Virus record (IMG/VR): IMGVR_UViG_3300043425_001634
Location: 1-64,000 of that record
Source of the DNA: a virus
Length of the DNA stretch: 64,000 nt
Direction: 5' to 3' (one strand)
A model generated the notes under the pieces. It was given only the letters and a program-made list of their open reading frames with translations, ran no database searches and was not told where the DNA came from. This document shows positions 13,398 to 13,514 of the stretch, piece after piece (positions within the stretch are counted from its first letter, which is position 1; the number at the start of each line of letters is the position of its first letter). The position numbers and the translations under genes were made by a program.

Positions 13398-13514
13398 GGG
13401 GCAGTAGCGCAGCTAGGAAGCGTACCGGCACCTTCTTGGTGTTGTTGGCCAAGCAGTTCAAATCTGCAATCGGTTCAATGCCGGTGGTCGCGGGTTCAAA
13501 TCCCGTCTGCTCCT
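13398..13514 (+). tRNA. tRNA-like gene with a 50-nt anticodon 'loop' (43-nt structured insert; anticodon undetermined)
   Basis: Acceptor GGGGCAG/CTGCTCC; D arm GCGC-AGCTAGGAA-GCGT; stem CCGGC/GCCGG; variable loop TGGTC; T arm GCGGG-TTCAAAT-CCCGT. Confidence 0.75.

Follow-up and report, generated by a model that had tools for sequence, protein, structure and literature searches.

The stretch of DNA analysed here, called the window below, comprises the first 64 kb of a 91,507-bp virus record in IMG/VR (IMGVR_UViG_3300043425_001634), which carries 111-bp direct terminal repeats and is rated 100% complete; counts given for the whole genome refer to all 91.5 kb. Two convergent genes of this phage, one for a tape-measure protein and one for a thioesterase-like protein, are separated by a gap of 205 nucleotides (nt), of which 197 nt are taken up by two tRNA-like RNAs, here named e1 and e2 (Table 1). 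For e1, a reading of the sequence alone (hereafter the sequence-only reading) had proposed a tRNA-like RNA with an insert in its anticodon arm, to be understood either as a processed mini-intron gating an opal-suppressor or tryptophan tRNA, or as an unspliced mimic acting as decoy or scaffold. The present analysis confirmed the feature, which is no chance structure and most likely not a hidden suppressor: e1 has an alanine-type tRNA body in which a structured insert with T-arm mimics stands in place of the anticodon loop, and e2 is a second tRNA body with an enlarged anticodon loop.

The acceptor, D, variable and T arms that had been recognized in e1 are present letter for letter. The acceptor stem consists of 7 bp, among them G1-C72, G2-C71, G3.U70 and G4-C69, and the D arm of 4 bp with a 9-nt loop containing G18 and G19. 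The anticodon stem has 5 bp, all of them G/C, begins one nt after the D arm and keeps canonical distances to the D and T stems, and a variable loop of 5 nt (UGGUC) leads to the genuine T arm. U8, A14, G15:C48 and G53-C61 are all present, CCA is not encoded, and the discriminator is a U at 13514. Four stems, U8, A14, G18 and G19, G53-C61 and a T-loop with UUCAA are found in e1 and e2 alike, the 42 stem pairs of both bodies combined are standard pairs without exception, and both have a U at position -1. Both lack the anticodon loop of 7 nt that a decoding tRNA has, with U33 and purine 37: the strands of the anticodon stem are separated by 50 nt in e1 (13430-13479), as read before, and by 11 nt in e2. 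Because neither has a 7-nt anticodon loop, neither can decode, and any function must lie in shape, cargo or acceptor end. What e1 presents is an intact tRNA body encoded by a phage, with a canonical anticodon stem around a structured insert that is not a group I intron.

Table 1. Features at the locus of e1 and e2, with positions in the window.
Feature	Position	Strand	Basis or remarks
e1, tRNA-Ala-type body with a 50-nt insert replacing the anticodon loop, 117 nt	13398..13514	+	Sequence, ARAGORN intron mode, minimum free energy (MFE) fold
e1 acceptor 5' strand GGGGCAG	13398..13404	+	Pairs with CUGCUCC at 13507-13513
e1 anticodon-stem 5' strand CCGGC	13425..13429	+	Partner GCCGG at 13480-13484
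e1 insert (cargo), 50 nt	13430..13479	+	Sequence
Hairpin B, T-arm mimic GCAG-UUCAAAU-CUGC	13453..13467	+	Pair probability >0.99
Hairpin C, second T-arm mimic AUCGG-UUCAAUG-CCGGU	13469..13485	+	Fold and genome hairpin scan
e1 genuine T arm GCGGG-UUCAAAU-CCCGU	13490..13506	+	5 bp, loop UUCAAAU
e2, second tRNA body	13518..13594	+	3 nt downstream of e1; Rfam tRNA 46.5 bits
Tape-measure gene, 3510 aa	2854..13386	+	Open reading frame list; PHROG tape-measure families matched
Thioesterase-like gene, 233 aa	13592..14293	-	Convergent; stop codon overlaps the final 3 nt of e2
Promoter-like site TTAACA-17-TATCCT	13349..13377	+	Only 9/12 consensus match; weak

Judged by its sequence, the body of e1 is of alanine type and not of tryptophan type, because its 28-nt 3' stretch from the variable loop to the acceptor end matches tRNA-Ala(CGC) only and because it carries G3.U70. 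Among 185,579 reference genomes this stretch has five exact matches, every one of them a tRNA-Ala(CGC) gene whose acceptor 5' strand is likewise identical to that of e1. In comparison with bacterial tRNA-Ala(CGC), the acceptor (GGGGCAG/CUGCUCC with G3.U70), the GGUC of the variable loop and the whole T arm are identical and the D arm is similar, whereas e1 has 50 nt for the 7-nt anticodon loop, U73 for A73 and A20 for G20. The bacterial alanine identity set does without the anticodon; G3.U70 is the main determinant for alanyl-tRNA synthetase (AlaRS), and A3-U70 was reported to abolish alanylation (PMC9976931). The core of this set is found in e1, where G3.U70 is accompanied by G2-C71 and G4-C69 (PMC9976931). 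The exact identity of the 3' half with genuine tRNA-Ala genes along 28 nt could also be taken as a relic of recombination or integration, in which a tRNA-Ala attachment-site region received a small piece of DNA, and further tRNA 3' halves do occur in the genome. However, an attachment site has the 3' part of a tRNA only, whereas e1 has a complete 5' half as well, no repeat of the insert was found elsewhere in the genome, and the record has direct terminal repeats; such an origin appears highly improbable.

The insert is non-random: by chance a whole genome should have 1.4 canonical T-arm hairpins, and the insert alone has two. The T-loop module GCAG-UUCAAAU-CUGC noticed in the sequence-only reading is real (hairpin B), but to speak of one mimic was incomplete, for a second T-arm hairpin (hairpin C) follows it, and e1 contains three canonical T-arm-type hairpins in series, the last of which is the real T arm. 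Six such hairpins were found in the whole genome, compared with 1.4 in shuffled genomes (both strands); e1 accounts for three of the six, e2 for one and 3' halves of tRNA-Met for two. Hairpin C borrows the 3' strand of the anticodon stem, and the cloverleaf and the MFE fold are therefore mutually exclusive. The latter (-47.4 kcal/mol; z = -3.6 against dinucleotide shuffles) retains acceptor, D and T arms and exchanges the long-range anticodon stem for three local hairpins and a 4-bp stem. The perfect 5-bp anticodon stem at exactly canonical positions nevertheless argues for the cloverleaf as the ancestral layout. A further hairpin of the sequence-only reading, CUUGGU/GCCAAG with an ACC/GGU bracket, can be drawn, but the e1 structure that includes it scores -40.2 kcal/mol and is not the MFE fold. 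Neither a stop codon in any frame nor a 7-nt anticodon loop exists in the insert. As regards an internal duplication as its origin, similarity to the 3' half of e1 itself is limited to the 9-nt GUUCAAAUC, and in a search of the phage genome for antisense targets of the insert or of the e2 loop the longest match was 11 nt, which equals the shuffled median.

With default settings ARAGORN reported no tRNA at all, whether for the window or for the complete genome. When introns were allowed, it returned e1 as a 75-nt tRNA(UCA) with a 43-nt insert and the loop G-U-UCA-A-U, and e2 as Ala(cgc) with a 4-nt insert. The Rfam tRNA model (RF00005) detects e2 at 46.5 bits (threshold 29) despite the 11-nt loop and e1 at 13.3 bits only, on its T arm. 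Expanded RNAs of this kind escape default tRNA finders, and e1 escapes the Rfam thresholds too. Two other families were considered and rejected. As a tmRNA (RF00023) e1 scores 19.8 bits against a threshold of 47, with no pseudoknots and with no tag frame or stop codon in the insert, and a match to YrlA or Y RNA (RF02553), at 26.5 bits against 69, spans the T arm of e1 and the D arm of e2, with no TROVE gene in the genome.

If e1 were an intron-bearing suppressor, its 43-nt insert would be cut out by RNase and the ends ligated, and the product would be a tRNA(UCA) that accepts alanine and decodes UGA. The ARAGORN prediction in intron mode is in line with this, excision of 13431-13473 does leave A-U-UCA-A-U as had been stated, alanine identity is tolerant of any anticodon, and unexplained inserts in phage tRNAs have already been termed introns in print (PMC6784885). 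TGA, however, behaves as an ordinary stop in this genome. Under code 11, stop-to-stop open reading frames (ORFs) of at least 100 aa make up 88% of the genome; when TGA was read as sense, no long ORFs were merged and the largest remained essentially unchanged. TGA terminates 32 of 116 long ORFs and is not in excess among long same-frame ORF pairs split by a single stop (three pairs, compared with six for TAA and five for TAG). An RNA ligase of the RtcB, Rnl2 or T4 Rnl1 type is not encoded in the complete phage genome. With 43-50 nt the insert is, as had been pointed out, far too short for a group I intron, for which some 200 nt or more are typical, and Rfam scans at E up to 10 gave no match to an intron family. 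Moreover, the presumed anticodon UCA is part of the GGUUCAAUGCC T-loop motif (UUCAAUG) in a perfect 5-bp T-arm hairpin, the excision site is arbitrary in that no anticodon could be restored without an arbitrary cut, and by our own reasoning RNase P/Z-rule cutting around the ACC/GGU mini-fold would leave a loop of 4 nt, not 7. Together with the alanine body, these results leave the processed mini-intron gating an opal-suppressor or tryptophan tRNA unsupported, and we consider it very improbable.

In e2, the acceptor (AAAGCGA/UCGCUUU) ends in a discriminator A and has A3-U70 in place of the alanine feature G3.U70. Its 11-nt loop AUCGCAAGAAA (13550-13560) can close in the fold as a 2-bp stem with a GCAA tetraloop; the loop starts with A-U-CGC-A-A, which resembles the loop of tRNA-Ala(CGC), and GAAA then follows. 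Of the two RNAs, e1 has alanine acceptor marks and no anticodon, and e2 an alanine-type anticodon motif and no acceptor marks. This split of alanine features may be a coincidence or may stem from the duplication of one gene. No tRNA-family matches other than e1 and e2 were found in the genome, which is rated 100% complete, so that the two do not belong to any decoding set.

Similarly expanded tRNA bodies, of alanine and non-alanine type, were detected by pattern scans in about 50 other phage contigs. The alanine pattern combined a GGGG...CUCC acceptor including U70 with the usual start of the D arm, a T arm and 18-48 additional nt between them; it yielded 34 loci in IMG/VR, L022-L052 among them, and 28 distinct sequences on unrelated contigs after removal of close relatives, duplicates and the false positive L023. 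Although the pattern did not demand it, A73 is present in 26 of these 28. In many, a canonical anticodon stem encloses a hairpin (e.g. L029, L032, L036, L041, L046, L051), in a few the extra piece lies in the D loop instead (L025, L027, L040, L042), and several pass the Rfam tRNA model. For the alanine pattern and a non-alanine control pattern taken together, the anticodon arm is where most loci have their additional nucleotides. The genomic contexts of the loci are varied. Twelve of the records are at least 90% complete. Six of these, with 50-80 kb, have no full-length tRNA-family match besides the expanded gene, or no such match at all, and in this they resemble the present phage. RtcB was found in none of 32 expanded-RNA records and Rnl-type ligases only in genomes of 84, 221 and 376 kb. 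Between the related members L026 and L045 there are eight differences, which comprise one double compensatory change, one substitution that keeps its pair, none that breaks a pair and five at unpaired positions.

The cargo of e1 is unrelated in sequence to that of all other members of this class. A scan for T-arm mimics near a real T arm gave mostly junctions of a tRNA with a tRNA fragment, and only L036 resembles e1 in having such a mimic in its insert, in opposite order. This locus (L036:1706-2417 of IMGVR_UViG_2871113200_000001, minus strand) belongs to a provirus tRNA cluster with two ordinary tRNAs; the insert of its alanine-type body contains a GCAG-UUCGAAU-CUGU mimic and a 4-bp hairpin, and the gene adjoins a second expanded tRNA-like gene of 101 nt. 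A GC-rich phage contig (L020:5276-5396 of IMGVR_UViG_3300028399_000005) encodes a 117-nt alanine-type body with CCA and an unrelated insert of about 45 nt; ARAGORN finds nothing there, the tmRNA match is below threshold (35.6 bits, threshold 47), and the record has a weak match to a T4 Rnl1-type ligase (28.5 bits).

We read e1 and e2 as unspliced tRNA mimics that would occupy a host factor reading tRNA elbows or T arms, and assign this reading a probability of about 0.45, slightly below even odds. Both retain the parts by which tRNAs are recognized, namely the acceptor/T-arm helix, the D-loop/T-loop elbow and the U at -1. Transcription of the pair would start at the weak promoter within the last part of the tape-measure gene, or else the operon would be read through into it, RNase P and 3' processing would release both RNAs, and a host enzyme would add CCA. 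Unspliced, stable and tRNA-shaped, they would then accumulate, as engineered scaffolds do in E. coli, and cargo and elbows might sequester the host factor, for which the candidates are a defence nuclease directed at tRNAs and an enzyme that processes or modifies them. e1 may also be charged with alanine, since AlaRS reads G3.U70 and not the anticodon. Alanylation is possible but uncertain, and less certain than for typical members of the class because of U73 and A20. The second proposal of the sequence-only reading, an unspliced mimic, agrees with all findings and with the roughly 50 comparable phage RNAs; its role as decoy or scaffold is what we infer.

Several observations weigh against such mimics. 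The cloverleaf is not the most stable fold, as the best fold constrained to it reaches -42.0 kcal/mol compared with -47.4 for the MFE, and with U73 (not A73) and A20 (not G20) e1 departs from two minor alanine identity elements. A control pattern with a GGGC...GCCC acceptor gave 25 loci (L062-L086) of the same architecture; expansion is not alanine-specific, no enrichment of alanine bodies among expanded RNAs is claimed, and because the non-alanine control is this productive, charging is not obviously the point of these RNAs. Genes for conceivable partners, namely TROVE, CCA-adding (PolyA_pol), FemAB-type and AlaX-type (tRNA_SAD) proteins, were not found in the phage genome. Conservation is uninformative: the locus is carried by two IMG/VR contigs only, with 98.8% DNA identity over 23 kb, and the three substitutions in e1 and none in e2, where about 1.4 and 0.9 are expected, have no statistical power with two near-identical relatives. 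One of the three turns G30.U46 of hairpin A in the MFE fold into G-C and another adds one pair to hairpin C, but the third breaks the D-stem pair C11-G25.

Relatives were sought with the C-terminus of the tape-measure protein and an alignment of four proteins, and the more distant IMG/VR contigs are without any tRNA-like gene. By tblastn of the tape-measure C-terminus no close cultured relative was found, nothing similar to the e1/e2 pair turned up by blastn among INPHARED phages or PLSDB plasmids, and a scan of IMG/VR for the three-T-loop pattern returned just the relatives and one coding repeat. Homologues limited to two near-identical genomes, the D-stem mismatch in them and U73 in place of A73 could all be expected of decaying tRNA pseudogenes, that is, of tRNA genes acquired from a host or another phage which suffered an insertion and a 4-nt expansion of the anticodon loop and are now drifting without function. 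Standard detectors miss e1, and the two tRNA-Met 3' halves are tRNA debris present in the same genome. Decay would hardly leave all 42 stem pairs standard and the tertiary nucleotides retained, nor would it place both lesions exactly in the anticodon loop and both in structured form, in e1 as a pair of T-arm hairpins and in e2 as a GNRA cap. It also has to contend with an intergenic gap that is nearly filled by the RNAs, and with an architecture that recurs in about 50 unrelated phage contigs, sometimes as the sole tRNA-like gene. We regard pseudogenes as unlikely.

The position of the pair permits another explanation. No intrinsic terminator was predicted between the convergent genes on either strand, e1 begins about 11-12 nt past the stop codon of the tape-measure gene, and the 3' end of e2 falls within the stop codon of the gene on the other strand. 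The tRNA shapes might hence act as RNase P/RNase Z signals or as roadblocks that end the convergent tape-measure and tail-fibre transcripts, the RNAs being by-products; that they fill the convergent gap and that each tRNA-Met 3' half sits just before a terminator hairpin is compatible with such a module. It leaves unexplained, however, why the anticodon loops were rebuilt, why the cargo mimics T arms and why the alanine acceptor is preserved letter for letter, and other members of the class occur in varied contexts. A module of this sort seems quite improbable to us as the main role.

The weak promoter-like site is situated in the terminal part of the tape-measure gene, and 21 nt separate it from e1 downstream. 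For the tape-measure protein itself no Pfam family was found, and the PHROG matches are partial only; its relatives (P0003-P0005, 54-69% identical) come from ENA/Logan assemblies only. The gene includes three tandem repeat copies of about 357 bp each at 10701-11770 (+), which are 88-95% identical, and the relative UViG_3300047553_000984 apparently has one copy fewer, which would amount to a tail-length polymorphism. A search for relatives of the thioesterase-like neighbour found none. Beyond it, at 14306-18984 (-), follow four successive genes for proteins of 450, 225, 694 and 190 aa, none of which matches Pfam; the 450-aa protein has a weak match to a PHROG 'tail protein', the sole PHROG match among the four. 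The two tRNA-Met(CAU) 3' halves are near-identical and located at 40813-40857 and 47907-47951 (+); they span the region from the anticodon loop to the acceptor 3' strand, both lack a 5' half, and one terminator-like hairpin follows directly after each.

The host is very likely a HIP1-rich cyanobacterium, because the HIP1 octamer GCGATCGC occurs 59 times in the genome, compared with 0.6 expected copies. Within the 111-bp terminal repeat (window 1-140; genome 91394-91507) these octamers are spaced 24 bp apart (22, 46, 70, 94, 118) and form a short tandem array at both genome ends.

The usual explanations for tRNA genes in phages are that they supply codons or help to evade anticodon nucleases. 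Neither explanation fits a complete phage whose only tRNA-like genes cannot decode, and dozens of unrelated phage contigs with similar genes point to a non-translational job for the tRNA shape. If such RNAs are stable and processed, they might represent a new kind of RNA by which phages counter defences or regulate, and the mutually exclusive folds make e1 a small and tractable test case. A more far-reaching view, which we put forward as rather improbable, is that natural 'tRNA scaffolds' are a widespread phage device with a chassis processed by the host, often of alanine type so that charging would not need an anticodon, and a swappable cargo. In the present phage the extra pair of T arms would then either shift the RNA from the cloverleaf to a fold with three T arms and back, or bind a host factor recognizing elbows or T arms, such as a tRNA-cleaving defence enzyme, with e2 as partner.

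An alanine body with a double T-arm cargo and a GNRA-capped partner appears to be new and to represent a barely described kind of phage RNA, and known systems resemble it in part. The tRNA-like domain of tmRNA is also a non-decoding RNA with an alanine-type acceptor, G3.U70 and a T arm, whereas e1 has a full D arm and an anticodon stem, but neither pseudoknots nor a tag frame. YrlA, the bacterial Y RNA that goes with the Ro60-like Rsr, is likewise a non-coding RNA mimicking tRNA, in phages as well, but its tRNA shape is permuted and closed by a Ro-binding stem, and a TROVE/Rsr gene was not found in the phage. The phage tRNAs of van den Berg et al. 2023 reportedly escape host anticodon nucleases and share with e1 and e2 the presence of changes in the anticodon loop, yet they remain decoding tRNAs with a 7-nt loop. 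The nearest precedent that we found in print are the introns, described as 'enigmatic', in tRNA genes of the Lak megaphages (Devoto et al. 2019, PMC6784885). There, too, phage tRNA genes are split in the anticodon region by short inserts other than group I introns, whose mechanism of removal is unknown, and one insert is itself tRNA-like (PMC6784885). On the other hand, Lak phages are gut phages of 540 kb, TAG-recoded and with at least 30 tRNAs, whereas the present cyanophage has 91.5 kb, the standard code and no ordinary tRNA, and its anticodon could not be restored without an arbitrary cut. In architecture e1 is matched by the engineered tRNA scaffold of Ponchon and Dardel, where chimeras with a structured RNA for the anticodon stem-loop undergo processing and build up in E. 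coli (PMC3753655). Both retain acceptor, D and T arms, and a structured insert takes the place of the anticodon stem-loop; the scaffold is man-made, and a natural use of the same principle by phages is our inference. Should RNAs like e1 and e2 turn out to be stable, processed and possibly also alanylated, this laboratory scaffold would have its natural counterparts in them.

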